A stretch of DNA of 41,855 nucleotides, from positions 1 to 41,855 of the forward strand of contig CAXCCM010000002.1 of the NCBI GenBank assembly GCA_963981005.1. The letters are read 5' to 3'. Numbering within the stretch: the first letter of the stretch is position 1; each line of letters starts with the position of its first letter. The notes under the pieces were generated by a model. The model was not told the DNA's origin, ran no database searches, and was given only the letters and a program-made list of their open reading frames with translations. Positions 10,498 to 35,043 of this stretch are shown piece after piece. Both the position numbers and the translations under genes were made by a program. This DNA is from an uncultured bacterium. Its GTDB lineage: Bacteria; Cloacimonadota; Cloacimonadia; Cloacimonadales; TCS61.

Positions 10498-10540
10498 ATA
10501 AGCTATCTCCTTCTAATGTTTGTGACATACTGTAGTTGTC

Positions 10541-12178: not shown

Positions 12179-12232
12179 TATTGCTCCTTTTTGACTTTGA
12201 TACAGTAAATGTTTCTTTTGTTGTTACTTGTT

Positions 12233-14352: not shown

Positions 14353-14373
14353 CTTGGTCTAGACTACCCTTAT

Positions 14374-16884: not shown

Positions 16885-16939
16885 TTTAATTCCTTTCGTT
16901 TTTTGTTTTAATTACATAAACATTTAAGTAGAAACCTAA

Positions 16940-17671: not shown

Positions 17672-17689
17672 ATTTACATTTCTCTTATA

Positions 17690-18625: not shown

Positions 18626-18639
18626 TTTTCAATCTTCCT

Positions 18640-19602
18640 TTAAATTTTTCGATTAACAATAGGTTTTTGCTCAACTTCTAAATCACAAATGTATGGATCG
18701 TGACTAGGGTAAAACAAGTGTGTTTTTGACAGGATGTCCACCCTTCCTCTGCCGGTTTTGTTGTTATTTAGTACTTCAATATTATACACAATTTCATGTG
18801 ATCTTATCAAACCATAACCTTCCACAATTCTACCAAATGTTTTAAAAGTTGGATCAACAGGGATCCATCCATAATTCTCTAAATAAAACTCCCCCCATGC
18901 ATGACGATAGGCAAAAACATGGCGTGCGGGAATATTCTTACATCTTAATAGGGACAATAAAACAGTTGATAGACCTCCACAATCTCCACCCTCATTTTTT
19001 AAAATTTCCAACGTTGTTTTTCCGTATCCGGATGTACTTTTAAACGTGAGGTTGTCATTAACATAGTCAAAACATTTTTTAGCATAAGCATATACATCAG
19101 TTGCATCTATCCAGAGTTCATCACTGATCTTTTTTATAGTCGCATTTTCGATATCAATAATATCATAGTACTGTTTTGTATAGCGTTTGTAAATATCGGA
19201 AGTTGTATCGTATTCATAAATTCTATCTATATTTGCTGAAACATATTCTGTGTTTGAGGGTACATAGTCAAACTCAATCATCACTTCACCCCAATCACCT
19301 TCAGCCGGTTGTTGCTCAGGTGAAATAGTAAAGCGAACATAATTATCCGGAGAGTCTGGATTATCAAGTATCTCTCCGCTGTGTGTATCGATATTGGATA
19401 TCAGCTGATAATCATTATTACGTGGAAGCGGACAATAGATGAATTGTAAATTTTCTCCTGCCTTTACCTTCTTAAACTTTATTTTATGAGTATAACGATA
19501 AACCTGATCATCTATCGAATTATCAGTTGTTTCAGCGGTTAAACTATATGTCAGAAATACAAGAAAAAGTATGTTCAATAAATGTATTTTAAACTTTTTC
19601 AT
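18640..19602 (-). CDS. Secreted transglutaminase-like (papain-fold) protein
   Basis: Signal peptide, plus a Cys-His-Asp core: GGDCGGLS ... HAWGEFY ... GWIPVDPT. Confidence 0.75.
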   Translation of the reverse strand: MKKFKIHLLNILFLVFLTYSLTAETTDNSIDDQVYRYTHKIKFKKVKAGENLQFIYCPLPRNNDYQLISNIDTHSGEILDNPDSPDNYVRFTISPEQQPAEGDWGEVMIEFDYVPSNTEYVSANIDRIYEYDTTSDIYKRYTKQYYDIIDIENATIKKISDELWIDATDVYAYAKKCFDYVNDNLTFKSTSGYGKTTLEILKNEGGDCGGLSTVLLSLLRCKNIPARHVFAYRHAWGEFYLENYGWIPVDPTFKTFGRIVEGYGLIRSHEIVYNIEVLNNNKTGRGRVDILSKTHLFYPSHDPYICDLEVEQKPIVNRKI

Positions 19603-19604
19603 AT

Positions 19605-21398
19605 TTATTCCTCTAATTTAACGCATTTAGATTCTCTTCCACCTTGGGTTAATGTCATACTTTCTACTTTTCCATCATTCTTTAAATTAAATGTAAATTG
19701 AGCTTCGAATATTTTTGGATAAAAAACATTTTCAGATTCAGAAAAAATTTCAAACTGATCTTGACCAGTTGCCTGAGCTTTCATTTGCTTACCTTCTTTC
19801 GTAACAGTAATAATAAACCCTTCTCGTAGTTCATATTTACCCACATAACTTTCCAAAATGGCATTATCAACAGGCTTATCTATAACTAATCGTCCAACCA
19901 TAGCGTATGTTGGAGGTTCCATAAACGCGTTTCTAGTTGTAGGAAAACCTGTCATTCCTGATTCTGCACGTTGACCAGATTCTGAAACAAAACTGATATT
20001 TCCCGATTTGTCAGGGTAAATATTAAATAGGAAACATGAACCTAAGTAGGTTGAATAAAGGAGTTTACTATTTTTAATGTCGATTACAGAAACAAAAGAT
20101 TTTTTGCGTGCAAAAAAACCTGAGTTAAAGGTCTTCTCTCCGACTGGATAATCTGAATACAAAGCGTTCTCGGTAAGCGGAAAATCGGCAGAACTTGTTG
20201 TTCCTCCAATAACAATAGTATCATTATTAAGAAAATTTACTGACATGACTTTATCGGCTTCACTTCCTCCAAATAATGTTGAGTATTCTAATGTCATATC
20301 ATCAGAATTAAATACAGATATGAAGCAATCCTGTTTACCCTTACCTTTTTTGCTAATAGCATTATCAGTTACTGGGAAATTTTCTTCCTTAGTGCTGCCT
20401 GAGACTATCAATCTGTTTGGTTTTGTCCATTTTAAATTTGAGCTCTGATATCCATCGGCTGCGAAATAGCTTAAATATGAAATTTTGTTGTCTGCTGCGT
20501 TTATTTTGGCAATAAAATGATCCATTCTGGCTCTATTTTCAGGTTTGATGAATTCTTTGCGAATAGCATTATCAGTTACTGGTAAGTCTGCTGTAAGAGT
20601 ACCGCCTGTAATATATATATTATCTTTGTCATCAACATCAAGCCCAAGAATCATTTCCATTTGGCTACTTCCAAAGAATGTGGAGAATAAAAGCTTTTCT
20701 CCATCTGGATTAAATTTAGAGACGAAACCATGGTGCTTTTTACTTGTAGAGTCAATGACACCTTTTGTTAGAGGAAAGTCATGAGAAAGGGTAACTCCCA
20801 CAAGAATAATATTACCTTTAGAATCAATTTTAATGCATCCCCCGCTTACAGTTTCTTCAACTTCACCTCCAAGAAATGTAGAAAATATGATATCAGTTCC
20901 AGTTGGATTCATTTTAGTTAAGAAAACATCGCCAGCCCATTGTCCTTCACCATTAAAACTAGTATCATACACTCCTTCAGTTACAGGAAAATCTGATGAT
21001 TCTGTACCTCCTGCTAAATAAATAAATCCTTGTTCATCCACTGTTATAGCTGTATGATGTTCTCTTTTTGTACCACCAATTAATGTTGCAAAAACTATTT
21101 CCCCTTTGGGTGTAAATTTTGCTACAAAGACATCGGCCAAATCCTCACCCTTTAATTCAGTTTGATACGCTCCTTCAGTAGCTGGAAAATTCTTATCTTT
21201 AGTATTTCCTGAAATATAAGTATACCCTTCGTTATCGGTATAAATATCAAAACCTGATGCAAATCTATCAGTATGCGAAAGATAAGTAGAAAAACCAAGC
21301 TTATATGCTAAGCTATCTGCAAATTCTATTGTTTGCGAGTTTAGAATTCCTAGATTAAAAAGAATTCCTAATAAGATGAAACTAATTTTTTTTAACAT
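19605..21398 (-). CDS. Secreted SBBP-repeat beta-propeller protein with a C-terminal DUF3471-like domain
   Basis: Signal peptide. At least 6 repeats of G(G/N/S)T...(D/N)FP(V/L/A)T(E/D/K)(G/N)A type are present. The tail YVGKYELREGFIITVTKEGKQMKAQ...FTFNLKNDGKVESMTL resembles the domain usually appended to beta-lactamase-fold enzymes. AAGGAG RBS. Confidence 0.7.
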   Translation of the reverse strand: MLKKISFILLGILFNLGILNSQTIEFADSLAYKLGFSTYLSHTDRFASGFDIYTDNEGYTYISGNTKDKNFPATEGAYQTELKGEDLADVFVAKFTPKGEIVFATLIGGTKREHHTAITVDEQGFIYLAGGTESSDFPVTEGVYDTSFNGEGQWAGDVFLTKMNPTGTDIIFSTFLGGEVEETVSGGCIKIDSKGNIILVGVTLSHDFPLTKGVIDSTSKKHHGFVSKFNPDGEKLLFSTFFGSSQMEMILGLDVDDKDNIYITGGTLTADLPVTDNAIRKEFIKPENRARMDHFIAKINAADNKISYLSYFAADGYQSSNLKWTKPNRLIVSGSTKEENFPVTDNAISKKGKGKQDCFISVFNSDDMTLEYSTLFGGSEADKVMSVNFLNNDTIVIGGTTSSADFPLTENALYSDYPVGEKTFNSGFFARKKSFVSVIDIKNSKLLYSTYLGSCFLFNIYPDKSGNISFVSESGQRAESGMTGFPTTRNAFMEPPTYAMVGRLVIDKPVDNAILESYVGKYELREGFIITVTKEGKQMKAQATGQDQFEIFSESENVFYPKIFEAQFTFNLKNDGKVESMTLTQGGRESKCVKLEE

Positions 21399-21448: not shown

Positions 21449-21511
21449 AACACCTAATATCACATTTTACAATAAGTTAGTTATAACTTACAGTTTATTT
21501 AGTCTTAAAGG

Positions 21512-21548
21512 TGTTCATCAACGTTCAATTTTTGTTCTCTTGTGAACA
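21512..21548. promoter_or_regulatory. Paired candidate enhancer (UAS) sites upstream of P1
   Basis: TGTTCatcaacGTTCA (21512-21527) and the perfect palindrome TGTTCtcttgtGAACA (21533-21548). The starts are 21 bp apart, and the pair lies 64-100 bp upstream of the -24 element. Confidence 0.5.
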
Positions 21549-21589
21549 GTGTAGAGCGATTCACCTGGAACAATAACTTCTTAAAAATT

Positions 21590-21958
21590 CTAACAAATAA
21601 CTGATCGATTATTATCTAATAGTTCTAAAAGCATTGGCATTGACACTGGCTTCACTAGATAATCGAGATACTTAGTTTTTTGCAACCTTTTAGTATATTG
21701 TGAAATCGGATCTGAGCTATGAAAAATTATATGAGTTTTATGCAATTCCTGAATCAAACATGCAATTTCGATCCCATCAATATCTCCCAAAACATTTATA
21801 TCCATCAAAAAAAAATCTGGTTTAAACTCTTCAGCTGCTTTAAGTGCACTTTTATAATCACATGCTATTGAACAGACATCATGACCATTTTCTTCTAATA
21901 AAAACTTGATATCTTGCGCGATCAATACTTCATCTTCTACAATACAAATAGTATTCAA
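21590..21958 (-). CDS. Stand-alone response-regulator receiver (CheY-like)
   Basis: IVEDE, FFLMDINV (phospho-acceptor Asp) and a conserved VKP lysine region. As sequenced it has only a TTG start, 2 nt after a G7 run; see findings. Confidence 0.75.
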   Translation of the reverse strand: MNTICIVEDEVLIAQDIKFLLEENGHDVCSIACDYKSALKAAEEFKPDFFLMDINVLGDIDGIEIACLIQELHKTHIIFHSSDPISQYTKRLQKTKYLDYLVKPVSMPMLLELLDNNRSVIC

Positions 21959-22088
21959 ATCCCCCCCATAATCACAGAGATAGAGTTTGCATTATACCCC
22001 ATCTCTGCTAAAAAATATTCTTTGTACTCAATTCAAGATCCTTGGAATAATCTTCCAGATTGGAAGAGGTTTTCCATGATTGTATTAT

Positions 22089-25000
22089 TTATTTCATTAG
22101 GATCATTTTCTTCGTTGAAACATACTTGTCGGCTTTCATCTTGTAGAAATAAACGCCACTTGAAACTTTTTTGTTAGTATAGTCAGTTCCATTCCAGGTT
22201 ACAATGTGATCCCCTGATTCATTCACGTCATTTACGAGGGTCTTCACGAGCTGGCCGCGTAGATTGTAAATTTCCAAAGTCACGTTTCCAGTTTCTTTGA
22301 CTGAATAAGCAATATTGGTTTCAGGATTGAAAGGATTGGGATAATTTCCAGCAAGCTCTGTTATAGCAATGATATTATTACCGGCATTAGTTCCCATATA
22401 TGTGAATTCAATGGTAACTATATCAGATTCACCATCATCATAAATTGCTTGTACACCAGCAGTATATGTTTGATTGTAAACCAAATTTTCTAATAACCAT
22501 TCTGTATCGGTTGTATTACCTTCAAAGCTGGTATCCAAAAATACATTGTAGCTTTCCAGTTCTCGGCTGGAATTTACATTGTGATCTAGTGCATTAACAA
22601 ATACTTTTTCACGTTGAGTTGTAGTATGTGCACCTACTTCTTTTAGAGGAGTAGGAGAAAGTTCCGCAACAGTTCCATCGCCATACTGAACAACTGCACG
22701 AATGAGATAAGCTTCAGACCAAGATGTCCAACCTCCACCATTATTATGATCCCAAGATCTTCCATTATTCAAATTTGTATTACAGCTCATATAAGTATCT
22801 TCATCGATTGAACCAAAGGCAACAACGAAATCATTATCAACCATTAGGTTTTCATCAGATACATCTATTATTACCCAGTCATCAAAAAGAGCATAAGCTA
22901 ATTCAGTGTGTAATAGATCTTCTGTAGGAGCCCCTGCATCCCAGCCCCATACTTCAGCATTGAACTCTGTACCTGAAGAGGTGTGTATTTTCAGTTCCAG
23001 AATTTGGCAGGCTTCACTAGGACTCATTTGAGTTCCCATACTAAAACCAACATAGCTGTATTGGCCGTTACTTACACCATTATCGTAGATTAGTTCCTCA
23101 ATATCACCGCCGCCACCAACTGGTGCATCCCAAGTGAAAAGTCCATCTTCATCAACTGCTAAGTTTGTTGGTGGATCAAGAGTTGTGGCTGGATTATAAG
23201 TGAAATCTACTTCTACGCACTCAGATATACCGTCATCATAAACTGCTTCTACGCCAGCAGTGTAAGTCTGACCGCTAGTAAGATCAGAGAACATCCATTC
23301 TATATCGATAGTATTACTAACCATTTCACCATCAAGATAAACATTGTAACTTTCCAATTCTCGGCTGGAATTTACATTGTGATCTAGTGCACCAACTTTT
23401 TTTACAGGAGTTGAAGAGAGTTCGGCAACAGTGCCTGGTGCATCCCAGGTGAAAAGGCCATCTTCATCAACTGCCAGGTTGGTAGGTGGATCAAGAGTTG
23501 GTATTACTACATCTGTCAGCATCACATCATCAATATACCAGTAGTTAATGCCGTAAGAATCACCATTCAGATAGAAGCACATTTGGAATGTAGCTGATCC
23601 AACATCTGCATTAGTTATGGTTACGTTAACTGTTTCAGGTCCAACAGCACCAGCTGGAATAATCGACCATGCATCATTCCAGGTTGTACCATCGCTGCTC
23701 GTAGCTACACCCAGTGTGTATCCACCTGAATAGTCATCAACACAGTGCTTGAATTCTACAGCTATTTCTGTCATCTCTGATGTATCCAGAACCATTGTGC
23801 ACATTCTTGATATATCATTAAATGGGGGTGTCCAACTGAACATCATCTCAGTTCCAGTACCGCCTGCATGGTTTCCTGCAGAGGATCCCCAGTTTGTTTG
23901 CCCCACTCCATCGATATACCAGCCGGCTGGTGGAACACCACCACCGAAATCTTCTAAGATCAGAATACCCTCTGCACCAATAAAAGCTAAATTGGAAGTG
24001 GCTTCTCCACCATCACCAATTAAATTATAGGGAACAACTGTGTAGCAATATGTTCCAGCTAAAGGAATTGTATTATCTATATAAGATGTATTTAGCCCGG
24101 TTACTTCAAATAAAACACCGTCATTTCTTTCGATGTGATAACCACCAATAACATTGTTAAAAGAACCGCCATGCAATCCGGTTGTGGGATTATCCCAAGT
24201 AAGTGTTCCTGATAAAATACCGGGAGATGTTTGCGTTAAAATAAGATTATTAACCGCAGCCGGAGCATCTTCTCCAACCCAAATAGTACTCTCAACCGTG
24301 ATCCCCTCACCAGCATCATTGAAGCCAACAACACCATAGGTATAAATTCCGGCCGTTAGCATACTAGAATCTACGTGAGAACCTGTGCCACCGATAACAG
24401 GAGCTGTATCTGTGTAGATGAGTGTTCCATCTCTGTAGACTCTCATCTCATCGAGATCCGCAAGAGTGTTTCCGCCAATTGTTGTTGTTGGACAAGTCCA
24501 GCCGATATCAGCTTGGAAAATACCATTAGCACCCGGGGTAACAGTTACATCTGTAGGAGCGGCAGGTGAATTAAGAGTTTCAGCTGACAAATTTATATCT
24601 AAAGTGGTTATCTCTTCAGATAAGATCTCCACATCAGGGATTGTTAGAGTATTATAACCATCCATTGTACATATCACATCATAAATCCCAGCCATTTTAT
24701 CAAAGCTGTACGACCCATCAGCAGCAGTTTCCGCAAAAGTAAAATACCCGTCTGTTATGATCGCACCTTCAATAGCATCACCTGTATCAGCATCTGTAAC
24801 CGTTCCTGCTACAGAACCGAAATCACATTCCTGATAGCAGCATAATCCACCCTCATATGTACCTATCCAGAGTCTGGATTCAGCATCAAGCTCCAGACTC
24901 AATATATTATCTGTGGGTAGTCCGGAGTTTGTACTATTGTAGGAATACCAATCATTACCATCATATTTTGCCAATCCTGCTTCAGTTCCTACCCAGACAT

Positions 25001-25775
25001 TGCCTTGATTATCGATCAGGATTTCCTGAGTATAATTACTGGGAAGATTGGAGTTATTAACATTGTACACTGACCAGATAGTGCCATCAAAACATGCAAC
25101 ACCACCACCAAAAGTAGCCATCCAAATATTGTTTTCATTATCAAATTCAATATCATAGACAGTATCATCCGGAATCTCTGAATTCCCTGTATTGTAAGAG
25201 CTCCATTCAGAGCCATCAAAGCTAGTCAGACCACCCCACTGGGTTCCAATCCATTTTACATCATCTTGATCAACATTTATTGTATAGATCGTATTATCGG
25301 GTAACTGACTATTATTCATGTCGAAAACTTCCCAGACAGAACCATCAAAACTGGCAATTCCACCAAAACTGGTTCCAATCCATTTAACATTATCTTCATC
25401 AATTGTAATTTCTGTAACCAGAGGATATGGGAGCGGAGATGCCCCATATGTATATTCAGTCCAGCTAGAACCATCAAAAACTGCAGCGCCATTACCAGAT
25501 CCGATCCAAATATTACCATTCTCCTCTCTGGCTATACACCTTATAGTTGCATAATCATAATAATAATTCTGCCAATTTACATCATCATAACTGGCTAGGC
25601 CACCACTGAATGTTCCTACCCACTTCACATTATCAGGAGCGATTAATAGATCATATACATCATCTGCCGGAATACCTGAGTTTGTAAGATCATAAATGTC
25701 CCATTCCTCAGCATAAGCTAAGAAAGAGACTGAAAATAAAATTAACATCACTAATAATAAACTTTTACTCTTCAT
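22089..25775 (-). CDS. Large T9SS cargo protein with propeller, CarboxypepD_reg, FN3-like, anchor-J-like and CTD modules
   Basis: Signal peptide. Repeated NVKWIGT..GGL..FDG..W blades are present, followed by GTVTDADTGDAIEGAII. The central region is shared with 25837..28347. The terminal NYPNPFNPETNIAYS...LEIYNLRGQLV...SGVYFYKM is a type A sorting domain. Confidence 0.8.
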   Translation of the reverse strand: MKSKSLLLVMLILFSVSFLAYAEEWDIYDLTNSGIPADDVYDLLIAPDNVKWVGTFSGGLASYDDVNWQNYYYDYATIRCIAREENGNIWIGSGNGAAVFDGSSWTEYTYGASPLPYPLVTEITIDEDNVKWIGTSFGGIASFDGSVWEVFDMNNSQLPDNTIYTINVDQDDVKWIGTQWGGLTSFDGSEWSSYNTGNSEIPDDTVYDIEFDNENNIWMATFGGGVACFDGTIWSVYNVNNSNLPSNYTQEILIDNQGNVWVGTEAGLAKYDGNDWYSYNSTNSGLPTDNILSLELDAESRLWIGTYEGGLCCYQECDFGSVAGTVTDADTGDAIEGAIITDGYFTFAETAADGSYSFDKMAGIYDVICTMDGYNTLTIPDVEILSEEITTLDINLSAETLNSPAAPTDVTVTPGANGIFQADIGWTCPTTTIGGNTLADLDEMRVYRDGTLIYTDTAPVIGGTGSHVDSSMLTAGIYTYGVVGFNDAGEGITVESTIWVGEDAPAAVNNLILTQTSPGILSGTLTWDNPTTGLHGGSFNNVIGGYHIERNDGVLFEVTGLNTSYIDNTIPLAGTYCYTVVPYNLIGDGGEATSNLAFIGAEGILILEDFGGGVPPAGWYIDGVGQTNWGSSAGNHAGGTGTEMMFSWTPPFNDISRMCTMVLDTSEMTEIAVEFKHCVDDYSGGYTLGVATSSDGTTWNDAWSIIPAGAVGPETVNVTITNADVGSATFQMCFYLNGDSYGINYWYIDDVMLTDVVIPTLDPPTNLAVDEDGLFTWDAPGTVAELSSTPVKKVGALDHNVNSSRELESYNVYLDGEMVSNTIDIEWMFSDLTSGQTYTAGVEAVYDDGISECVEVDFTYNPATTLDPPTNLAVDEDGLFTWDAPVGGGGDIEELIYDNGVSNGQYSYVGFSMGTQMSPSEACQILELKIHTSSGTEFNAEVWGWDAGAPTEDLLHTELAYALFDDWVIIDVSDENLMVDNDFVVAFGSIDEDTYMSCNTNLNNGRSWDHNNGGGWTSWSEAYLIRAVVQYGDGTVAELSPTPLKEVGAHTTTQREKVFVNALDHNVNSSRELESYNVFLDTSFEGNTTDTEWLLENLVYNQTYTAGVQAIYDDGESDIVTIEFTYMGTNAGNNIIAITELAGNYPNPFNPETNIAYSVKETGNVTLEIYNLRGQLVKTLVNDVNESGDHIVTWNGTDYTNKKVSSGVYFYKMKADKYVSTKKMILMK
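23195..24585 (-). repeat. Paralogous block shared with 26145-27535 (constant 2,950-nt offset)
   Basis: The alignment is collinear with no net indel. Identity is patchy, from near-identical around 24240-24570 to clearly lower around 23780-23990. Confidence 0.85.
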
Positions 25776-25836
25776 TTGTTTTCCTCCAATTTTTTATATT
25801 ACTTTTTTTGATACTTTTACTTAATCTGCTTTTTTT

Positions 25837-28347
25837 TCATTTCATTAGGATCATTTTCTTTGTAGATGTGAAATTTAGAGTTTTCATTTTGTAGAGGTAG
25901 ACTCCACTTGCAACAGTCTTACCTGAATCATTAGTACCATTCCACGAAATGATATGATCTCCAGATTCAACTACACCTCTGATAAGTCTCTTAACAAGTT
26001 GACCGCGTAGATTGTAAATTTCCAAAGTCATGTTTCCGAGTTCTTTGACTGAATAGGCAATATTTGTTTCAGGATTGAAAGGATTTGGATAGTTTCCAGC
26101 AAGTTCTGTTTTAGCAATGATGTTATTGCCAGCATCAGCTCCAATATAGGTAAAATCTATTGTCACAAGCTCAGACATACCGTCATCATAAACTGCTTCT
26201 AAGCCGGCTGTGTAAGTCTGACCGCTAGAAAGACTACTGAATTGCCAGAAGCTATCATCAGTACTGCCCTCAAAATATCCATCGAGATAAACATTGTAAC
26301 TCTCCAGTTCTCGGCTGGAATTTACATTGTGATCCATCACATCAACAAATACTTTTTCACGTTGAGCTGTAGTATGTGCACCAACTGGTGCATCCCAAGT
26401 GAAAAGGCCATCATCATCAACTGCTAGGTTTGTTGGTGGATCAAGAGTTGGTATTACTTCATCTGTAAGCATCACATCATCAACATACCAATAGTTGAAA
26501 TCAGATGAGTTTCCTACAAAATAGAAGCACATTTGAAATGTAGCGGATCCAACATCAGTTGTGGTAACAACAAAATTAACTGTTTCAGGTCCAATTCCTC
26601 CGGTTGGAACAATCGACCATGCATCATTCCAGATTGTACCATCGCTGCTAGTTGCTACACCCAGTATATATCCACCTGAATAGTCATCAACACAGTGCTT
26701 GAATTCTATAAATATCTCTGTCATATCTGATGTATCCAGAACCATTGTACACATTCTTGATATACCAATAAAACAGGGTTCCCAAGCTAGCACCATCTCA
26801 ATTCCAGAACCGCCTGCATGGTTTCCTGTAGAAGATCCCCAATTTGATTGGCCCATTTCATCACTATGCCAACCAGTTGGTGGAACACCATCACTGAAAT
26901 CTTCTGAGATCAAAAAACCCTCTGAACCAATAAAAACTAAATTGGAAGTAACACTTCCACCATCACCAATTAAATTATAGGGAACAACTGTGTAGCAATA
27001 TACTCCAGCTAAAGGAATTGTATTATCTATATATGATGTTGTTGAACCAGTTACTTCAAATAGAACACCGTCATTTCTTTCGATATGATAACCACCAATA
27101 GCATTGTTAAAAGCACCACCGTGCAATCCGGTTGTGGGATTATCCCAGGTAAGTGTTCCGGATAGATCGCCGGGAGAGGTTTGAGTTAAATTAAGATTAT
27201 TAACTGCTGCCGGAGCATCTTCTCCAACCCAAATAGTACTCTCAACCGTGATTCCTTCACCAGCATCATTAAAACCAACAACACCATAAGTATAAATTCC
27301 TGCATATAGCATACTAGAATCTACGTGAGAACCTGTGCCACCAACGGTTGGAGTTGTATCTGTGTAGATGAGTGTTCCATCTCTGTAGACTCTCATCTCA
27401 TCAAGATCTGTAAGAGTGTTTCCGCCAATTGTCGTAGTTGGGCAAGTCCAGCCAATATCAGCTTGGTAAATACCATTAGCGCCAGGGGTAACAGTTACAT
27501 CTGTAGGAGCTGAGGGTGAATCAGGAGATTCAGCATCACGCAGTTCCATTCCGTAAAGAAAATCAATTTCTCCTTGTCCAAGACAACCTAAAATAGTTTT
27601 ACCAGGAACCAGTCCACCTTCGTAATAGAATGCACCTCCAATAACTCCGGCATTACCAAGAGTAACGGAGTAAGAAGTTCCGGTTGGTGCACCACTTAAA
27701 TCATATTGAATAAATGTGGTTGGTTCAGCAAAAAGCCATAAGCAATCTGCATAGGAGTCATAAGCCAAACCATAGGCGGAGTTATCATCAGCATAAATAT
27801 TGATTACATTACCATTAACATCAAATTCATAAATGGGATCACTAAAACTCTTTGTCCAGAAATGGTTACCGTCATAAGCTAAAGCACGGATAGTTCCAAA
27901 TGATGTGCCAAATTCTGTAGTCCAGGTTTCTGAAGCAATATCAAATGAGAAGAAATTAGTCTCATTTCCACCATAGATTTTACCTTCAGAGGCAACATAT
28001 GCCAGGTCCCGAATTCCCCAGACGAATGCGGCAGCTGGTTGTTCGTAACTATTAACTAAGGTTCCTGCAATCGGATCTATTTTGTAGAGGTAGTTGGGAT
28101 CTACGCCATTTCCACCACCGGTAGCCCATATATTAGTACCATCATATTCTACACCAAGCAGTTGATTATCATTTGCTATGCCCTCCACATCAAGTGAATA
28201 TATGATCTCTCCAACTTCGTCTGTGATCACAGGGATTGTTGATGCTGGTCCAACATCATTCAACAACGGTGCTGCTTCTACTCTTTTATCAGCAAATAAA
28301 CCTGCTGAGACCAGCAATACTAACACTAACAAAAAAAACATTTTCAT
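25837..28347 (-). CDS. T9SS cargo protein, paralog of 22089..25775 with a different N-terminal propeller-like region
   Basis: I place the start at MKMFFLLV (AAGGAGA RBS) rather than the ORF-track 28386, which would overlap the upstream receiver gene. It has the same FN3-like and anchor-J-like core and the same T9SS CTD. Confidence 0.8.
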   Translation of the reverse strand: MKMFFLLVLVLLVSAGLFADKRVEAAPLLNDVGPASTIPVITDEVGEIIYSLDVEGIANDNQLLGVEYDGTNIWATGGGNGVDPNYLYKIDPIAGTLVNSYEQPAAAFVWGIRDLAYVASEGKIYGGNETNFFSFDIASETWTTEFGTSFGTIRALAYDGNHFWTKSFSDPIYEFDVNGNVINIYADDNSAYGLAYDSYADCLWLFAEPTTFIQYDLSGAPTGTSYSVTLGNAGVIGGAFYYEGGLVPGKTILGCLGQGEIDFLYGMELRDAESPDSPSAPTDVTVTPGANGIYQADIGWTCPTTTIGGNTLTDLDEMRVYRDGTLIYTDTTPTVGGTGSHVDSSMLYAGIYTYGVVGFNDAGEGITVESTIWVGEDAPAAVNNLNLTQTSPGDLSGTLTWDNPTTGLHGGAFNNAIGGYHIERNDGVLFEVTGSTTSYIDNTIPLAGVYCYTVVPYNLIGDGGSVTSNLVFIGSEGFLISEDFSDGVPPTGWHSDEMGQSNWGSSTGNHAGGSGIEMVLAWEPCFIGISRMCTMVLDTSDMTEIFIEFKHCVDDYSGGYILGVATSSDGTIWNDAWSIVPTGGIGPETVNFVVTTTDVGSATFQMCFYFVGNSSDFNYWYVDDVMLTDEVIPTLDPPTNLAVDDDGLFTWDAPVGAHTTAQREKVFVDVMDHNVNSSRELESYNVYLDGYFEGSTDDSFWQFSSLSSGQTYTAGLEAVYDDGMSELVTIDFTYIGADAGNNIIAKTELAGNYPNPFNPETNIAYSVKELGNMTLEIYNLRGQLVKRLIRGVVESGDHIISWNGTNDSGKTVASGVYLYKMKTLNFTSTKKMILMK
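26145..27535 (-). repeat. Paralogous block shared with 23195-24585
   Basis: See the partner entry. The 3' ~310 nt (25837-26150) also matches 22089-22400, at an offset of 3,748 nt. Confidence 0.85.
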
Positions 28348-28363
28348 TATTATCTCCTTATTT

Positions 28364-28762
28364 TCAAATGATTTCCCTTTTATCATGTATATCTTCTGCT
28401 TTTATTCTCTGAATTGATTCAATTAGAAATTCATAGTTAAATGGTTTTTTCATGAACAAATAGGCACCCCGATCTAAAGCTTCAGCCTGGGTTTCTTCAT
28501 CTGCAAAGGCAGAATAAATAATTACTTTGGCTTCATTATTCATTTGTAAGATCAATTTTAATACATCGATCCCATTGAGTTTTGGCATCCGAAAATCTGT
28601 TATAATAAGCTGGTAAATATTTTTATCATATTTTGATAGAGCTTCTTCCGGGTCTTTGAAGCCATGATTTGGAAAACCACCTATTTTCAGCGCATACCGT
28701 ATACTTTTTAATGTAAATTCATTATCATCAATCACCATTATCAATTTATTATCCTTTTCCAT
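28364..28762 (-). CDS. Stand-alone response-regulator receiver, first gene of the T9SS-cargo operon
   Basis: MVIDDNEF, LIITDFRMPKLNG and MKKP motifs. GGGAGGAAA RBS. Confidence 0.8.
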   Translation of the reverse strand: MEKDNKLIMVIDDNEFTLKSIRYALKIGGFPNHGFKDPEEALSKYDKNIYQLIITDFRMPKLNGIDVLKLILQMNNEAKVIIYSAFADEETQAEALDRGAYLFMKKPFNYEFLIESIQRIKAEDIHDKREII

Positions 28763-28799
28763 TTTTCCTCCCCCACTTTTTTCTCACAACTAAGAAAGT

Positions 28800-28815
28800 A
28801 GCAAATAGTGTACCA
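28800..28815 (-). promoter_or_regulatory. Sigma-54 (-24/-12) promoter P2
   Basis: The minus strand reads TGGTACACTATTTGCT, with correct GG-N10-GC spacing. It ends 38 nt upstream of the ATG at 28762. Confidence 0.7.
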
Positions 28816-28978
28816 AACAGAAAAGGTCGAGAAATGTAAGACTTATATGTTTAATATATAGATAGTTAAAGCTTTGAGGAACAAATTGTAATGAGTTATA
28901 TGAAAAGGTAGATCAATTCATTTTGAATCGTTCAAATTGAACTATAAATTCAGAATGGATCGGATAAAATTTGTTAGT

Positions 28979-30412
28979 TTATAGATCTCCGATTATTCGA
29001 CGAACCTTATTAATGGAAATTTTCAGATAGGAAGCAGTTTTAGTTTTATTTCCTTCAAACTTAGCTAGGATTTTTTCTACAACTTTCTTTTCAATATCAT
29101 ACAAACTAAGGTCATGTTCGGGAAAACTAATACTCAAACTATCAGAAGAATCAGTTGAATTCATTTTTTTATCCAGCAGAGATTTGATCCGATCTGCATT
29201 CAAAAGATCATCATTAGAAAGAAAGGCAGCTTGTTCCATTGTATTTTGGAGCTGTCGTACATTGCCAGGCCAATCGTAATTTAATAGAACCATAGTAGCT
29301 TCTTTAGTCAGAATTTTGACAGGTTGTTTCCTTAACCTGGCAAACTCTTCTAGGAACATTCTGGCTAAAGGAAGGATGTCTTCTTTACGTTGTTGCAAGG
29401 TAGGAATTGCTATTTTGGCTTTATTGATCCGGTAAAATAGATCCAAACGAAAACGATTTTCTTCTATCCCTTTTTCAAGTTTACAATTTGTTGCACAGAT
29501 CAATCGAAAATTAAGAGGAATTTTCCTAGATCCACCTACCCTGTAAATCTCTCTATCTTGCAGAGCTTTTAACAATTTCGGCTGCATTTCCAGCGGTAGT
29601 TCTCCAATCTCATCCAGAAATAGAGTCCCACCATTCGATAGTTCCATTTTACCCATCTGGCCTTTTCTGCTGGATCCCGTAAAAGCTCCAGCTTCATGGC
29701 CAAATAGTTCACTTTCGAATAAAGTAGGCGTGATTGACGCACAGTTTAAGGAGACAAAAGGTTTACCAAAATCATTATCTCCATAATGTATCATTCTGGC
29801 GATGATCTCTTTCCCAGTTCCAGAATCACCTTGAATTAATACGGGAATTGTAGAATCACCATGAAGTTTTTTAGCCATTTCAGTTACCTGTTTCATCTCT
29901 TCAGAAAAAATTCCAACTTTACCAATTCCTGAAACTTCTGCATAAGCATATTGCAGTTTTTTTAGTTTATCATTGATCAGGGCAGTTTCAGATTGAACCT
30001 TTTCATCGAACTTATTACGTAAAACAGTATTTTCCTTAAGCAGCTTTTGATGATCTTCCACCTTGCTAATAACAGTGACGAGCTCCTCAAGATCAATTGG
30101 TTTGCTCAGGTAATCGTAGGCACCTGCTCTTAATGCACCTAAAATACTTTGCGTATCTGTATGACCGGTTATTAATACAATGTCTGTATCTTTACCATCA
30201 GGATTGTCTTTGATCTTCTTGGTTAATGTAAAACCATCCATACCAGGCATGCGAATATCACTGATAATCATGGGAAACGAAGAATTTGAAAAGATCTTTT
30301 CACCTTCTAAAGCATTGTCGCAAACGGTTACTTCATGATTCAATTGATACTTCAGGAAATCGCTTATCGCTTTAGAAATCAATTTATCATCATCAATAAC
30401 TAATATTCTCAA
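28979..30412 (-). CDS. NtrC-family sigma-54-dependent response regulator (receiver, AAA+ and Fis-type HTH)
   Basis: ISDIRMPGMDG receiver, GDSGTGKE Walker A, ESELFGHEAGAFTGS (GAFTGA loop) and a C-terminal HTH (KTKTASYLKISINKVRR). The start overlaps the kinase stop. Confidence 0.9.
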   Translation of the reverse strand: MRILVIDDDKLISKAISDFLKYQLNHEVTVCDNALEGEKIFSNSSFPMIISDIRMPGMDGFTLTKKIKDNPDGKDTDIVLITGHTDTQSILGALRAGAYDYLSKPIDLEELVTVISKVEDHQKLLKENTVLRNKFDEKVQSETALINDKLKKLQYAYAEVSGIGKVGIFSEEMKQVTEMAKKLHGDSTIPVLIQGDSGTGKEIIARMIHYGDNDFGKPFVSLNCASITPTLFESELFGHEAGAFTGSSRKGQMGKMELSNGGTLFLDEIGELPLEMQPKLLKALQDREIYRVGGSRKIPLNFRLICATNCKLEKGIEENRFRLDLFYRINKAKIAIPTLQQRKEDILPLARMFLEEFARLRKQPVKILTKEATMVLLNYDWPGNVRQLQNTMEQAAFLSNDDLLNADRIKSLLDKKMNSTDSSDSLSISFPEHDLSLYDIEKKVVEKILAKFEGNKTKTASYLKISINKVRRIIGDL

Positions 30413-32103
30413 CTTTCTGCTCCCTCATTTTTTTTAAACGTTATCACAAACTCAGCACCACCGGATTTTTTATTTCCGGCCTTGATGTCAGCATTATATT
30501 TTTCTACATAATTTTTCACGATTGCCAAACCTAACCCCATTCCTTTGTCAGGTGATTTGGTTGAATAAAAAGGGTCGTAAATTTTTTCTCCCACTTCCAA
30601 AGCGAAGCCTGATCCATTATCAGAGATTTTTATTTCAGCATGATCGCCCTTACTCCTGGTACAAATATGTATTCGCTTATCTTTTTGGTTTGAATCATCC
30701 AGAGAATGGATTGCATTTGTGACAATATTCAGAATAATCTGTTCGATATGGATTGATTCGGCACAAATAAGTAGTTTCTGCTTTGCCAATTTAGTCTCAA
30801 TAAACACTCCATGCGAATAAAGCTGTCTTTCGATTAAATTTAGAGCATGTTTCACAGCTTCGTTAATGTCTATCGGTTTAAGCGAATTTGTCTTTGGAAG
30901 CTTCCAGAATGAGCGCATGTGTTTAATTATCTCATCGATTCGATTGCTAGCTTCGACAATATTTTCCAAGCCTTCTGCCAGGTATTCCGGTAAGATCAGA
31001 TCATTTTTTTTGTTCCAATATAAGATGCTTTCAGCACTCATTTTAATAGCACAGACAGGTTGATTGATTTCGTGAGTTATACCGCCTGAGATCACACCGA
31101 TTGAAGCTAATCTTCCGGCTTTTTCCATCATCTGTTTGGAAAGAAGTTCTTTTCTCTCTATTTCATGAGAAGAAGAGACATCTGCCAATCTCTTTGTTAA
31201 TTCTTCTGTGAAAAGAGAGTCTTTAATTTTTGAGTGTTTTTTATAAAATTTCAAGGCAGATTCAAAATCTTTCTGTTTTTCGTAATCCCTTGATAAATAT
31301 AGATATATATTTTTGATAAATTCTTTATATCCCAATTCTTCTGCCATTTGGAGTGTCTTGGAATGTGTTTTTACTGCTTCCTTGAATTGCCCCAAATTGC
31401 AATAAGAAGCTCCCAGATTATTCATAGCTGGTATCAATATCTTTTTATCTTCTAACTCACGAGCAACATCAATAGCTTTAGTAAAATATTGGATAGCCCG
31501 TTCATGCTGATCTAAAGCCATATATGCTTCACCAATATTCACAAGTATGATAGCTTCACTTCTTTTTAGATTGTGTTTTGAACAAAAGGAAGATGCTTCT
31601 TCCAGATACTTTAGAGCTTCATCATATCTTTTCATTCTAAGGTATACAATTCCGGTATTGATAATAATTGATTCAGTGTTATAAGTTGCATTATAATCAT
31701 CTTTTTGTGGAACGTATCTCTTTGCTTTCAGGAAATATTCCAGGGCTTTATCCAAATCGTTCATGTTTAAATAAATAAGACCAACATTTCCCAGAGAGAT
31801 GGCAATAGCAGGATTATTATCGATCTTCTTATAGACGTTGAGAGTTTGTAAAAAATAATTCAAAGCTTTATCATAATTATTGGATGAAACATTGATTAAG
31901 CCTAAGGTGTTCAAAGCTGATGCTTCCAAGTTCTGAAGATTATTATTTTGGGCCATGTTCAGAGTGAGTTGAGCAAATTTTTTACTGTTTTTCAAATCGG
32001 ATTGATGCCAATAACTGACAGCAAGTTTGCTGAATAACTCTACTTTTTTCTCAAGATTCTGCTCAGTGTTAGCTTGATGAATCCTTTCCTTCATACTTTT
32101 CAT
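30409..32103 (-). CDS. Cytoplasmic TPR-repeat sensor histidine kinase
   Basis: The N-terminal ~300 aa are TPR-like repeats (..ALNYFLQTL.., ..ALEYFLKA.., ..AIQYFTKAI..) with no hydrophobic helices. It has an H-box GGITHEINQP, a G1 box SDNGSGF and a G2 box GMGLGLAIV. I place the start at MKSMKER, after a TAGGAGCA RBS. Confidence 0.85.
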   Translation of the reverse strand: MKSMKERIHQANTEQNLEKKVELFSKLAVSYWHQSDLKNSKKFAQLTLNMAQNNNLQNLEASALNTLGLINVSSNNYDKALNYFLQTLNVYKKIDNNPAIAISLGNVGLIYLNMNDLDKALEYFLKAKRYVPQKDDYNATYNTESIIINTGIVYLRMKRYDEALKYLEEASSFCSKHNLKRSEAIILVNIGEAYMALDQHERAIQYFTKAIDVARELEDKKILIPAMNNLGASYCNLGQFKEAVKTHSKTLQMAEELGYKEFIKNIYLYLSRDYEKQKDFESALKFYKKHSKIKDSLFTEELTKRLADVSSSHEIERKELLSKQMMEKAGRLASIGVISGGITHEINQPVCAIKMSAESILYWNKKNDLILPEYLAEGLENIVEASNRIDEIIKHMRSFWKLPKTNSLKPIDINEAVKHALNLIERQLYSHGVFIETKLAKQKLLICAESIHIEQIILNIVTNAIHSLDDSNQKDKRIHICTRSKGDHAEIKISDNGSGFALEVGEKIYDPFYSTKSPDKGMGLGLAIVKNYVEKYNADIKAGNKKSGGAEFVITFKKNEGAES

Positions 32104-32264
32104 TTTTGCTCCTACTTTAAGCATTAATAATTAGCTATCATAATAGAAATTATTAATATCTTCTTCCTAATTACCTTATGTGCGTGGCGTTGATTTATTG
32201 CTTACTGCTTAAATCTACTTCGAAAAAATATTCATCTTAATACTATCAATTTCTGCATAATTAT

Positions 32265-32280
32265 TGCATTTTCTATACCA
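32265..32280 (-). promoter_or_regulatory. Sigma-54 (-24/-12) promoter P3, candidate autoregulated promoter of the HK/NtrC operon
   Basis: The minus strand reads TGGTATAGAAAATGCA, very close to P1. It implies a ~150-nt leader, unlike the ~25-nt leaders of P1, P2 and P4, so confidence is lower. Confidence 0.5.
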
Positions 32281-32345
32281 ATTTTTTTATCGTCCTATTT
32301 TACAGTATGTTAGATCATTACATATTATTGTTATCCCTTCATAAT

Positions 32346-32382
32346 TGTACAAATACGATCAGATTATGTTCGTATTTGAACA
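32346..32382. promoter_or_regulatory. Paired candidate enhancer (UAS) sites in the divergent HK / permease region
   Basis: TGTACaaatacGATCA (32346-32361) and the perfect palindrome TGTTCgtatttGAACA (32367-32382). The starts are 21 bp apart. The pair lies 66-102 bp upstream of P3 and about 204 bp upstream of P4. Confidence 0.5.
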
Positions 32383-32585
32383 TATTTTATCACTTCAAAG
32401 ACAAGGAATGTATTTATAGATAAACTAAAAGATCCAACGGAAATCTGAGCCATAATTTAGCATTTAAGTTAGGTCGATTTTATGCTGTGCAAAATGTCCG
32501 TAAATGAACGCATATTGTACTCCTGCGTACATATTTATTAGGAGATACTAATGCTATCTCTTTATAACAATTTATTTTATGCGTT

Positions 32586-32634: not shown

Positions 32635-35043
32635 ATGTTCAAGAACTATATCAAAATCGCTTACCGCAACATCCTTAAACAAAAAACATATTCAGCTATT
32701 AACATTTTTGGATTAGCTCTGGGCCTAACAGCCTGTATTTTGGTCGGACTATATATTTATCAAGATTTCAACTATGATAATTATCATGCAAATGGTGAAA
32801 ATATATATCGTGTAAGTATAGAAATGGTTACTCCAGATGATACTTTCAATTTTGCACAAACACCTGCTCCGGTAGCGCCAAGTTTAAAGCAAAATTATCC
32901 TGAGATCAATAAAATTTCCCGGATCTTTTTTGCCAAAAACGATCTTATCACATACGAAAAGAACAAATTCTATGAGGAAGAAATCGTCTTTGCTGATGAA
33001 GATTTTTTCAAGATCTTCAGCTACAGCACATTACAAGGAAATCCTAATACGTTCTTGCAAAAAGATAACTCTGTTGTGATAACAAAAAAAATAGCTGATA
33101 AATATTTTGGTACAGAAAACCCCGTTGGTAAAATCCTTAATTATAATAGCAGGATCGATCTGGAAGTTGTTGGTGTTGTCGAGAATGTACCAATAAACTC
33201 ACATTTCACTTTTGATATGGTAGTTACATATAATTCTCTTATTCAGCTTCCGCAGGGTAGATACTTAGATCAATGGGGAGCAACTTTTGGTTCTTACACT
33301 TATGTGCTAATGCATCCGGGAACTGATCTTGATAAATTTGTAGATAAAGCTGGTCCCTTCCTTACAGAAAAAATGGAAACAACCGATAGAGTTCATGAAT
33401 CTGTTATTTTGCAACCGATTAAATCTATTCATATGTTTTCTAATCTTGAGGATGAAATAAATCCCAATAGCTCAATTACATATATACTAATTCTAGGGTC
33501 AATTTCGCTTTTCATACTAATATTAGCATGCATCAATTTTGTAAATTTAACAACTGCCAGAGCAGTGAAAAGAGCTAGAGAGATTGGTGTGAGAAAAGTG
33601 TTTGGTGCCTTCAGATTACAATTAGTCAGACAATTCCTGGGTGAATCTATCATAACGACATTGATAGCATTAGCATTTGCATTTGTGTTTGTTGAGCTTT
33701 TCATTCCACTATTTTCTCAGTTAATAGGAACAACACTGGTCTACAGTCTTTTTGATAACCCTTATATCTTACTAATTATATTAGCAGGTTCTCTAATTAT
33801 TGGAATTTTAGCTGGTTTGTATCCAGCTTTTGTACTCACACATTTCCAACCTGCTTTAGTAATGAAAGGTGCAACCAAACAAGGAAAAAGTAGTTCAGCA
33901 TTACTTAGAAAAGGCTTAGTTCTATTTCAGTTTTCCATTTCCATAATTCTCATTATTTTCACAATTCTGATAAATAAACAGATTAATTTCATGCGAAATT
34001 TTGATATGGGATTTGAAAAAGAACAGATTGTTGTTCTTAAAACCCCAGAAAGAATGTCCCGTAATTCTGAAACTATTAAAGAAGAAATAAATGCAATTCC
34101 CGGAGTTATCGAGTCATCAACTAGTTTGGGTATTCCGTTGCAGAATAGCGGTTTTGGAACAAATCTAAGCCCATATGCTGATTCTGATGAGGATGAATTT
34201 TCTATATCTGTGAAGATGATCGACTCCGAATACATAGATTTTTACCAGATTCCACTATTGGTAGGCAGAAAACTTACTGAGACTGATGAAGCAAATTATG
34301 CAAATGTGACTGTTGTGAATGAAGCAACTGTAAAAAAGCTTGGATTTGCAAATAATGAAGATGCCCTAGGGCACAACTACACAATTGGTTTGAGTGATGG
34401 AGTAAAAAGATTTTCACCCGAGATAGTGGGTGTGATAGAAGATTTTCATTTCAATTCTCTACACGAAGAAGTCTCACCTCTTTTATTTATGTATTGGTAT
34501 TTTCTATTTCAAGAGATCTCTATAAAGATCAGTCCACAAAATGTTCCTGAAACAATGAAAGAGATTAAACTGGTTTGGGAGAAATTTTATCCAGAACATC
34601 CATTTGTATATTCATTTTTAGATGAAGATATAGATAAAATGTATAAAGCAGAAGCAAGATCTTTCCGCGTGATCTCAACCTTCTCATTCTTAGCAATTAT
34701 TATTGCTTGTATGGGTCTCTTGGGACTCACATTCTACACCACCGAACAACGAAGAAAGGAAATTGGAATTCGCAAAATCTTAGGTGCTTCCATACCGGGG
34801 ATTGTAAGGGATATCTCTTTAGAGTTTTTAAAATTAGTTGTTATCGCCAACGTTATAGCTTGGCCGATAAGCTATTTCCTAGTTAAAAAGTGGCTCATGA
34901 ACTTCCCATATAAAATTGATATTGGACTGGACGTATTTTTATTAGCCAGCGGGTTAGCATTATTAATATCTTTTGTAACTATTGGCTATACCGTTATCCG
35001 CAGTGCTTATAGTAATCCTATAGACAGTATTAAGTATGAGTAA
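32635..35043 (+). CDS. ABC-transporter permease of the FtsX/MacB type (two FtsX modules plus a MacB-like periplasmic domain)
   Basis: MFKNYIKIAYRNILKQK is the typical N-terminus. Two FtsX four-helix modules are present, each preceded by RAREIGVRK / RRKEIGIRK. I place the start at the ATG after a GGGAGAAAG RBS. No ATPase gene is adjacent. Confidence 0.85.
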   Translation: MFKNYIKIAYRNILKQKTYSAINIFGLALGLTACILVGLYIYQDFNYDNYHANGENIYRVSIEMVTPDDTFNFAQTPAPVAPSLKQNYPEINKISRIFFAKNDLITYEKNKFYEEEIVFADEDFFKIFSYSTLQGNPNTFLQKDNSVVITKKIADKYFGTENPVGKILNYNSRIDLEVVGVVENVPINSHFTFDMVVTYNSLIQLPQGRYLDQWGATFGSYTYVLMHPGTDLDKFVDKAGPFLTEKMETTDRVHESVILQPIKSIHMFSNLEDEINPNSSITYILILGSISLFILILACINFVNLTTARAVKRAREIGVRKVFGAFRLQLVRQFLGESIITTLIALAFAFVFVELFIPLFSQLIGTTLVYSLFDNPYILLIILAGSLIIGILAGLYPAFVLTHFQPALVMKGATKQGKSSSALLRKGLVLFQFSISIILIIFTILINKQINFMRNFDMGFEKEQIVVLKTPERMSRNSETIKEEINAIPGVIESSTSLGIPLQNSGFGTNLSPYADSDEDEFSISVKMIDSEYIDFYQIPLLVGRKLTETDEANYANVTVVNEATVKKLGFANNEDALGHNYTIGLSDGVKRFSPEIVGVIEDFHFNSLHEEVSPLLFMYWYFLFQEISIKISPQNVPETMKEIKLVWEKFYPEHPFVYSFLDEDIDKMYKAEARSFRVISTFSFLAIIIACMGLLGLTFYTTEQRRKEIGIRKILGASIPGIVRDISLEFLKLVVIANVIAWPISYFLVKKWLMNFPYKIDIGLDVFLLASGLALLISFVTIGYTVIRSAYSNPIDSIKYE

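Follow-up and report, generated by a model that had tools for sequence, protein, structure and literature searches.

Phased dyad pairs upstream of sigma-54 promoters as probable NtrC-type enhancers in an uncultured Cloacimonadota-like bacterium

The locus and its sigma-54 promoters

A 41,855-nt stretch of DNA (hereafter the window) from an uncultured Cloacimonadota-like bacterium was analyzed for paired TGTTC-N6-GAACA dyads (N6 dyads) located upstream of sigma-54 promoters, which are probably enhancers bound by a bacterial enhancer-binding protein (bEBP) of the NtrC family. Transcription of the locus runs mostly on the minus strand. The promoters P1 to P4 precede, respectively, a DUF3471/hydrolase gene run, genes for proteins sorted by the type IX secretion system (T9SS), a TPR-repeat histidine kinase gene adjoined by that of an NtrC-family response-regulator bEBP, and a divergent MacB-like permease gene (Table 1).

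Comparisons were confined to locus fragments (L007 and L014-L035) and included exact-protein look-ups (L014-L021) and a metagenome scan with helix-turn-helix (HTH) alignment (L022-L030). A genome scan with the local bEBP returned L007 as the sole true orthologue. Marine metagenome-assembled genomes (MAGs; e.g., GCA_018652415.1) matched the window, its nearest relatives are labelled Cloacimonadota, and the source of L033 is related to Candidatus Tenebribacter (phylum Cloacimonadota). Chance levels were determined from shuffles (300 shuffles for the pair count).

The sigma-54 promoter pattern TGGYAY-N5-WTGCW was matched five times in the window, compared to 0.39 expected from shuffles. Four of the five matches (P1-P4, all with 0 mismatches) are intergenic and immediately 5' of genes, roughly 35-160 bp ahead of the start codons. 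The fifth, at 39276-39291 (+), was taken as chance because it falls within the coding sequence of a T9SS metallophosphatase, which begins with a signal peptide. Perfect -24/-12-like matches were also observed within coding sequences of L007 (20480-20495, minus strand) and L025 (7745-7760, minus strand), in the region of the T9SS C-terminal sorting domain. Such matches are conserved because the encoded protein is conserved; they are best regarded as chance and serve as a warning for promoter scans. A sigma-70 and terminator scan of the window stayed at chance level (46 sigma-70 matches vs 43 expected), and an Rfam scan of the window gave no match.

Table 1 Coordinates of promoters, dyads, boxes and genes in the window
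Feature	Position	Strand	Sequence	Remarks
P1	21433-21448	-	TGGCATAGAATATGCA	Sigma-54 -24/-12 match
P1 box	21464-21479	-	TAACTTATTGTAAAAT; reverse complement ATTTTACAATAAGTTA	CAA-N4-TTA core, IHF-site-like
P1 proximal dyad	21512-21527		TGTTCATCAACGTTCA; towards promoter TGAACGTTGATGAACA	Start 21 bp from distal dyad
P1 distal dyad	21533-21548		TGTTCTCTTGTGAACA; towards promoter TGTTCACAAGAGAACA	Perfect TGTTC-N6-GAACA; orthologous position kept in L032, L033 and L025
P2	28800-28815	-	TGGTACACTATTTGCT	Sigma-54 -24/-12 match
P2 enhancer block	28907-28963		ATTCATTTTGAAT (28916-28928); GTTCAAATTGAAC (28930-28942); ATTCAGAAT (28948-28956)	The first two are dyads
P3	32265-32280	-	TGGTATAGAAAATGCA	Sigma-54 match; leader of about 150 nt before kinase gene
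P3 box	32297-32312	-	TAACATACTGTAAAAT	Conserved, IHF-like, 5' of P3
P3 proximal dyad	32346-32361		TGTACAAATACGATCA; towards P3 TGATCGTATTTGTACA	
P3 distal dyad	32367-32382		TGTTCGTATTTGAACA; towards P3 TGTTCAAATACGAACA	Perfect match
P4 distal dyad	32495-32510		TGTCCGTAAATGAACG	Absent from the original list
P4 proximal dyad	32516-32531		TGTACTCCTGCGTACA	Start 21 bp from distal dyad
P4	32586-32601	+	TGGCATACTAATTGCA	Sigma-54 match; absent from the original list
MutL-family gene (PF13941)	12-2924	+		970 aa
P1 downstream run	9772-21398	-		SBBP/DUF3471 (597 aa), transglutaminase-like, PD40, NAD-binding, esterase-ankyrin-MBL, beta-lactamase-family, Kelch, amidohydrolase-methyltransferase
SBBP/DUF3471 gene	19605-21398	-		
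P2 downstream genes	21590-28762	-		Receiver (132 aa), two T9SS-sorted proteins (849 and 1228 aa), receiver (122 aa)
Stand-alone receivers	21590-21958; 28364-28762	-		No output domain
NtrC-family response-regulator bEBP	28979-30412	-		Receiver, sigma-54 AAA+ with GAFTGS, HTH_8
TPR-repeat histidine kinase	30409-32103	-		564 aa; downstream of P3
P3 leader	32103-32262	-		
MacB_PCD/FtsX duplicated permease	32635-35043	+		802 aa; downstream of P4; GGGAG 8 nt before ATG

Positions and anatomy of the N6 dyad pairs

The original prediction had described N6 dyads at 21512, 21533, 32346 and 32367 and a palindrome at 28930-28942, and all of these were found in the sequence at those places. Its offsets from the promoters were also reproduced (21512 to 21448, 64 bp; 32346 to 32280, 66 bp; 28930 to 28815, 115 bp). 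By allowing two or fewer mismatches to TGTTC-N6-GAACA, 43 sites were counted in the window (23.9 +/- 4.7 in shuffles), and two of them are perfect (0.05 expected). Sites at most 60 bp apart form three pairs (21512/21533, 32346/32367, 32495/32516), each spaced exactly 21 bp and each located 5' of a perfect -24/-12 promoter (P1, P3 and P4). Shuffled sequences gave 0.02 such pairs, and none of the 300 reached three.

Each pair forms a composite of the form X, 5-6 bp, and the reverse complement of X, where X is TGTTCA-N4-CGAACA and its reverse complement TGTTCG-N4-TGAACA (Table 2). In most composites the outer half-sites are TGTTCA/TGAACA and the inner ones CGAAC/GTTCG, so the 37-38 bp unit has a two-fold axis of its own. 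The distal dyad is the better match in every composite (window, L032, L033 and L025). Across the six composites the dyads are 21-22 bp apart and in helical phase, a layout that places the two dyads two helical turns apart on the same face of the DNA. The distances from the start of the distal dyad to the TGG of the -24 element are 100, 102, 91, 91 and 102 bp, which differ by about one helical turn; the distance in L032, one turn shorter, is mostly due to a 10-column alignment gap.

Table 2 The six composites, read towards the promoter
Composite	Distal dyad	Spacer	Proximal dyad
P1	TGTTCA CAAG aGAACA	AAAAT	TGaaCG TTGA TGAACA
P3	TGTTCA AATA CGAACA	TAATC	TGaTCG TATT TGtACA
P4	TGTcCg TAAA tGAACg	CATAT	TGTaCt CCTG cGtACA
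L032	TGTTCA TAAG CGAACA	AAAAC	TGagCG CTTG TGtACA
L033	TGTTCA CATG CGAACA	TAAAAC	TGgTCG ATTG TGAAaA
L025	TGTTCA TATT CGAACA	CAAAAC	TGgTCG ATTG TGAAgA

Conservation of the dyads and homology of the cassette

Orthologues of the gene behind P1 are abundant, and two were retrieved at 87% (L032) and 84% (L033) identity. Upstream of the DUF3471 gene, L032 carries TGTTCATAAGCGAACA, then TGAGCGCTTGTGTACA 21 bp on, and then the promoter TGGTATAGAAAATGCA, and L033 carries TGTTCACATGCGAACA, then TGGTCGATTGTGAAAA 22 bp on, and then the promoter TGGCATATAAAATGCA. At the syntenic position in L025, TGTTCATATTCGAACA is followed 22 bp on by TGGTCGATTGTGAAGA, and the contig ends before the promoter. Conservation of the dyads at orthologous loci, a check which had been proposed along with the motif, was thus observed at three other loci, all 5' of the orthologous DUF3471 operon.

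Mean pairwise identity was calculated per segment from an alignment of such upstream regions (alignment A4). The distal dyad reached 84%, the proximal dyad 69%, a third conserved box between enhancer and promoter 72%, and the promoter 90%, compared to 39% in the upstream flank, 35% from the dyads to the box, and 48% from the box to the promoter. Among conspecific contigs, P2, P3 and P4 are identical, and P1 shows one single-nucleotide polymorphism inside the enhancer (at a spacer position) versus six just upstream. As a control, viral contigs contained 46 exact matches to TGTTCA-N4-CGAACA-N5-TGNNCG, none with a -24/-12 match within 135 bp downstream.

The P1 and P3 regions can be aligned over their whole length, including the box. 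The region upstream of the kinase in the window can also be aligned with those before the DUF3471 genes in L032 and L033, from the enhancer past box and promoter to about 70 nt of leader, and the 16-mer of the P3 promoter is identical to that of L032. The P3 regulatory region is thus a homologous copy of the DUF3471 cassette (dyad pair, box and -24/-12 promoter), and this cassette appears to be the ancestral control region of the DUF3471/hydrolase operon in this Cloacimonadota-like lineage. By this homology the geometry shared by P1 and P3 is partly inherited, through duplication of the cassette rather than independent constraint, and it nonetheless appears to be selectively maintained. The P4 pair is best read as a third, more diverged pair that would serve the divergent promoter of the MacB-like permease.

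The box has the consensus TAACnTAYTGnAAAAT and is common to P1, P3, L032 and L033. Its opposite strand reads ATTTTnCAR-N4-TTA, similar to the consensus of integration host factor (IHF), WATCAANNNNTTR (cited in PMC5963220). According to PMC6296734, IHF sites at many sigma-54 promoters occupy the position that corresponds to the box, which is probably the site of an IHF-like bending protein that aids looping.

The P3 leader shares a stretch with the DUF3471 leaders of L032 (9912-10000) and L033 (9900-10000), which reads GAAATTGATAgTA..AAGATGAAT..TTTTCGAA.T.GATTT..AGTAA. The consensus fold of this conserved leader is weak (-1.9 kcal/mol) and it gave no Rfam match; the P1 leader in the window is only about 24 nt long. 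The shared element may act as RNA or, from its place behind the promoter, as an operator.

The dyad pairs as probable enhancers of the NtrC kind

The N6 dyad pairs are probably (at roughly 80%) genuine bEBP enhancers of the classical NtrC kind that serve sigma-54 promoters. They had originally been proposed as sigma-54 upstream activating sequences, and that proposal is borne out by their link to promoters, their helical phase and their conservation. A dyad pair would be occupied by two activator dimers of the NtrC family, and phosphorylation would cause the docked dimers to nucleate an active AAA+ oligomer. Through a DNA loop this oligomer would then contact sigma-54 RNA polymerase located 91-102 bp downstream, with a bending protein at the box probably helping to form the loop. 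bEBPs normally bind tandem palindromes far upstream, with IHF-assisted looping, as set out in PMC6296734 and PMC4641369. The arrangement is a textbook one, and sigma-54 activation is understood as before.

Several points weigh against this reading. P1 and P3, as homologous copies, are not independent observations, and the dyads of P4 are weak (2 mismatches each), with the P4 comparison drawn from the window alone. Two further DUF3471 orthologues, L034 (75% identity) and L035 (63% identity), are preceded by neither a sigma-54 promoter nor dyads, and the cassette is therefore lineage-restricted. The motif conserved in the family of the local bEBP, found at P2, is spaced differently from N6. Finally, rpoN is not within the 41.9-kb window and the organism is known solely from MAGs; the presence of a local bEBP gene implies sigma-54 (rpoN) in the genome.

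Among the closest known systems is NtrC at enteric glnAp2, along with enhancers of NtrC-family response regulators in general, which likewise has tandem dyads that share one face of the DNA roughly 100 bp 5' of a -24/-12 promoter and an activator composed of a receiver, an AAA+ domain (GAFTGA-type loop) and a Fis-type HTH that is paired with a histidine kinase. The NtrC motif is TGCACC-N5-GGTGCA, whereas the motif here is TGTTCA-N4-CGAACA, with dyads 21-22 bp apart. The targets also differ, being the DUF3471/hydrolase operon, the MacB-like permease and the TPR-kinase operon rather than nitrogen genes, as does the host, an uncultured Cloacimonadota-like bacterium. GlrR (QseF), which binds three TGTC-N10-GACA sites upstream of glmY, is similar in that a response regulator of the NtrC family acts through repeated TGT...ACA dyads at a sigma-54 promoter; it differs in core, length and number of sites, and its regulon is unrelated. 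Tandem palindromes favour oligomerization, according to PMC6296734.

The upstream activating sequence of NifA is TGT-N10-ACA (consensus cited in PMC6066989 and PMC4999443). This outline fits three of the six dyads in the window and all distal dyads elsewhere, again about 100 bp 5' of sigma-54 promoters. The conserved positions here reach further inward (TGTTCA...CGAACA), and the resemblance is formal only, because the local activator has a receiver rather than a GAF domain and there are no nif genes. CbrB of Pseudomonas (PMC6296734) has a similar half-site (TGTTAC vs TGTTCA), several subsites 5' of sigma-54 promoters, and an IHF site between enhancer and promoter; its subsites (TGTTAC ... GTAACA) are non-palindromic, with a spacing that varies from 12 to 16 bp, unlike the compact 16-mers and symmetric pair observed here. 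Predictions for Desulfovibrio vulgaris (PMC4641369) and Clostridiales (PMC6615313) likewise identified a conserved palindrome 5' of sigma-54 promoters near the bEBP gene, usually about 100 bp from the promoter. Those studies used whole genomes and, for some regulators, electrophoretic mobility shift assays, in contrast to the locus fragments used here.

A search of the accessible literature that paired Cloacimonadota with sigma-54 found no papers. The analysis provides a cis-regulatory map for an uncultured Cloacimonadota-like lineage, with four sigma-54 promoters, two putative enhancer motifs and an IHF-like box. Predicted sigma-54 control is also linked to T9SS-secreted proteins, to a MacB-like permease and to a widely conserved but functionally uncharacterized operon.

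The bEBP family and its N5 motif

The local bEBP was assigned by Pfam to Response_reg (5e-27), Sigma54_activat (7e-61), AAA_lid_14 and HTH_8 (1e-6). It belongs to a recurrent module of a TPR kinase, a bEBP, a spacer of 200-280 bp with a sigma-54 promoter, a receiver and T9SS proteins, in which the bEBPs are 49-90% identical; the genes of the P2 module are syntenic in L007, L017, L019 and L021. C-termini of the family follow NKT(K/Q)TA.YL.IS(I/V)NK(L/V)RRI. The recognition helix ISINK(V/L)RRI is common to homologues from 49% to 100% identical, and beside their genes lies the P2 type of dyad.

The P2 palindrome was originally described as related to the N6 dyads but differently spaced, and this is correct: it reads RTTCA-N3-YGAAY (spacing GTTC-N5-GAAC, hereafter N5), with a spacer one base shorter than that of N6. 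The two dyads of the P2 block have centres 14 bp apart. Over its roughly 57 bp the block is nearly palindromic around GTTCAAATTGAAC, and either end has a GATC(C/A)ATTC arm. In relatives whose bEBPs are 78-90% identical, almost every base of it is kept, unlike the DNA towards the promoter, and the block was found in L007, L014-L016, L022, L023, L025 and L029. L017, L019, L021 and L026 carry dyads of this type, with two N5 dyads 32 bp apart in L017 and L026, and N5 dyads are also present at further sigma-54 promoters in L017, L021, L026 and L028. Exact N5 matches are nearly confined to the enhancers of this family. The two in the window are both at P2, and there were none in L032-L035, which lack the bEBP. 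The P2 block was also tried as a degenerate N6 site and rejected, as no position-weight-matrix match of at least 11 bits was found there.

In L007, a repeat of roughly 220 bp, itself containing inverted repeats, occurs about four times in tandem between the bEBP gene and the P2 block (11,500-12,350), and the block is intact despite this insertion. L024 has an unrelated hairpin-rich insertion at the same place. Both insertions look like miniature mobile or repeat elements.

Candidate activators and rival explanations

The original prediction had proposed that N6 is what the bEBP encoded at 28979-30412 binds, and in that form the assignment is not supported, as the element conserved with the family is N5. 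The N5 dyad is present in all family loci, whereas the N6 composite was found among them only in the window and L025, and is absent from L007, L014-L017, L019, L021, L022 and L026-L028. N6 and N5 share their half-sites, including the CGAAC variants, and are one spacer base apart. Because the half-sites are the same and the spacing differs, the activator at the N6 pairs is about as likely to be the local bEBP as a paralogue whose gene lies elsewhere.

The local bEBP might read both N5 (P2) and N6 (P1, P3 and P4) and regulate its own operon, such that the T9SS and DUF3471 operons and the permease would form one regulon, a proposal given slightly less than an even chance. All three N6 composites of the window lie within 8 kb of its gene, two of them flanking its own operon, and the composite of L025 directly follows a bEBP-linked T9SS operon. 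A second sigma-54 promoter of L017 has a GTTC-N6-GAAT site and an N5 dyad 33 bp apart. Positive autoregulation is common in two-component systems, which counts in favour of the proposal; Fis-type HTH dimers are usually intolerant of a 1-bp change in spacer, which counts against it. Homologues that share the recognition helix carry only N5 dyads beside their genes, and L032 has an N6 composite with no bEBP within 10 kb. Furthermore, no sigma-54 promoter or dyads were found upstream of the kinase/bEBP operons of L007, L031, L017, L019 and L021, and in the first and second of these the bEBPs are 83-85% identical to the local one.

The same weight is given to the proposal that another bEBP, probably a paralogue, binds N6 and regulates the DUF3471 cassette, leaving the local bEBP to act only on P2. 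With the cassette copied before the kinase/bEBP operon, this other bEBP would stand above the local system in a cascade. The two motif classes are each separately conserved, the N6 composite goes with the DUF3471 operon and not with the bEBP gene, and P3 with its leader is homologous to the DUF3471 control region as a copy of it; the absence of a sigma-54 promoter before the family kinase/bEBP operon in other lineages also fits. No second bEBP was found in the 41.9-kb window, L032 or L033, and with half-sites identical to those of the local family motif, cross-recognition would be hard to avoid.

A more specific proposal, which must be considered doubtful, is that one NtrC-family activator reads the N5 dyads of its ancestral T9SS-operon promoter as well as the N6 pairs of later-acquired promoters, and that its regulon grew when the DUF3471 sigma-54 cassette (dyad pair, box, promoter and leader) was copied before the kinase/bEBP operon. 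If true, the duplication of an enhancer cassette would have rewired a two-component system into positive feedback, and in a way that can be traced.

The dyads could instead be sites of a dimer other than a bEBP (e.g., of the Crp/Fnr type) that acts as a co-regulator or repressor, while a bEBP would act from solution or elsewhere on the DNA. Crp/Fnr sites, TGTGA-N6-TCACA, have the same 5-N6-5 form, so that the 16-bp geometry and the TGT-N10-ACA outline fit the dyads too. Tried as a Crp/Fnr operator, the dyads match in geometry, but their position, about -75 to -125 of a sigma-54 promoter, differs from that of such operators, which are centred near -41.5 or -61.5 relative to a sigma-70 promoter. 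Dyads in phased tandem 90-100 bp upstream correspond to bEBP enhancers and do not fit the class I or II positions of Crp. The scanned open reading frames (ORFs) of the window include no Crp-type gene, and in alignment A4 the dyad pair is the only conserved upstream element besides the IHF-like box. Given also that sigma-54 promoters strictly need a bEBP, as stated in PMC4641369, this explanation is improbable. That the similarity is a functionless remnant of a duplicated promoter region, as the whole-length alignment of P1 and P3 would allow, is the least credible explanation, since conservation is concentrated in dyads, box and promoter with flanks decayed to 35-48%, the same pattern recurs across species, and P4 shares the dyad arrangement without visible resemblance to the cassette elsewhere.

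Neighbouring genes

The gene run behind P1 is likely one transcript, and similar operons lie behind the DUF3471 orthologues of L032 and L033. The longest ORF of the kinase has 571 aa and begins at 32124. An AGGAG ribosome-binding site belongs to the ATG at 32103, and this latter start is common to L014, L031 and some gene calls. The two stand-alone receivers bracket the T9SS-protein operon, and among relatives there is one such receiver in L019 and two in L021. Their role may be that of a phosphate sink or a connector serving the TPR kinase.

The SBBP/DUF3471 protein stands out for its conservation: in MAGs labelled Cloacimonadota, Bacteroidales, Lentimicrobium and Acidobacteriota its identity is 60-87%, and some single contigs carry several paralogues. 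The regulatory neighbours of its operon vary by lineage. In this genome there is the candidate sigma-54 enhancer, L034 has two LytTR two-component systems, and L035 has a TPR hybrid kinase that has an AraC output. An operon under different types of regulator in different lineages is a useful case of regulatory turnover. The local TPR kinase resembles the TPR hybrid kinase of L035 no more than generically (21% identity), so that a common sensor is not indicated.

A gene of the PF13941 'MutL protein' family lies near the DUF3471 operon in both the window and L032 (14768-17765, minus strand in the latter), which suggests wider synteny. The window protein has weak C-terminal biotin-lipoyl and NqrA_N barrel-sandwich matches, similar to the separate RnfC_N neighbour in L032.

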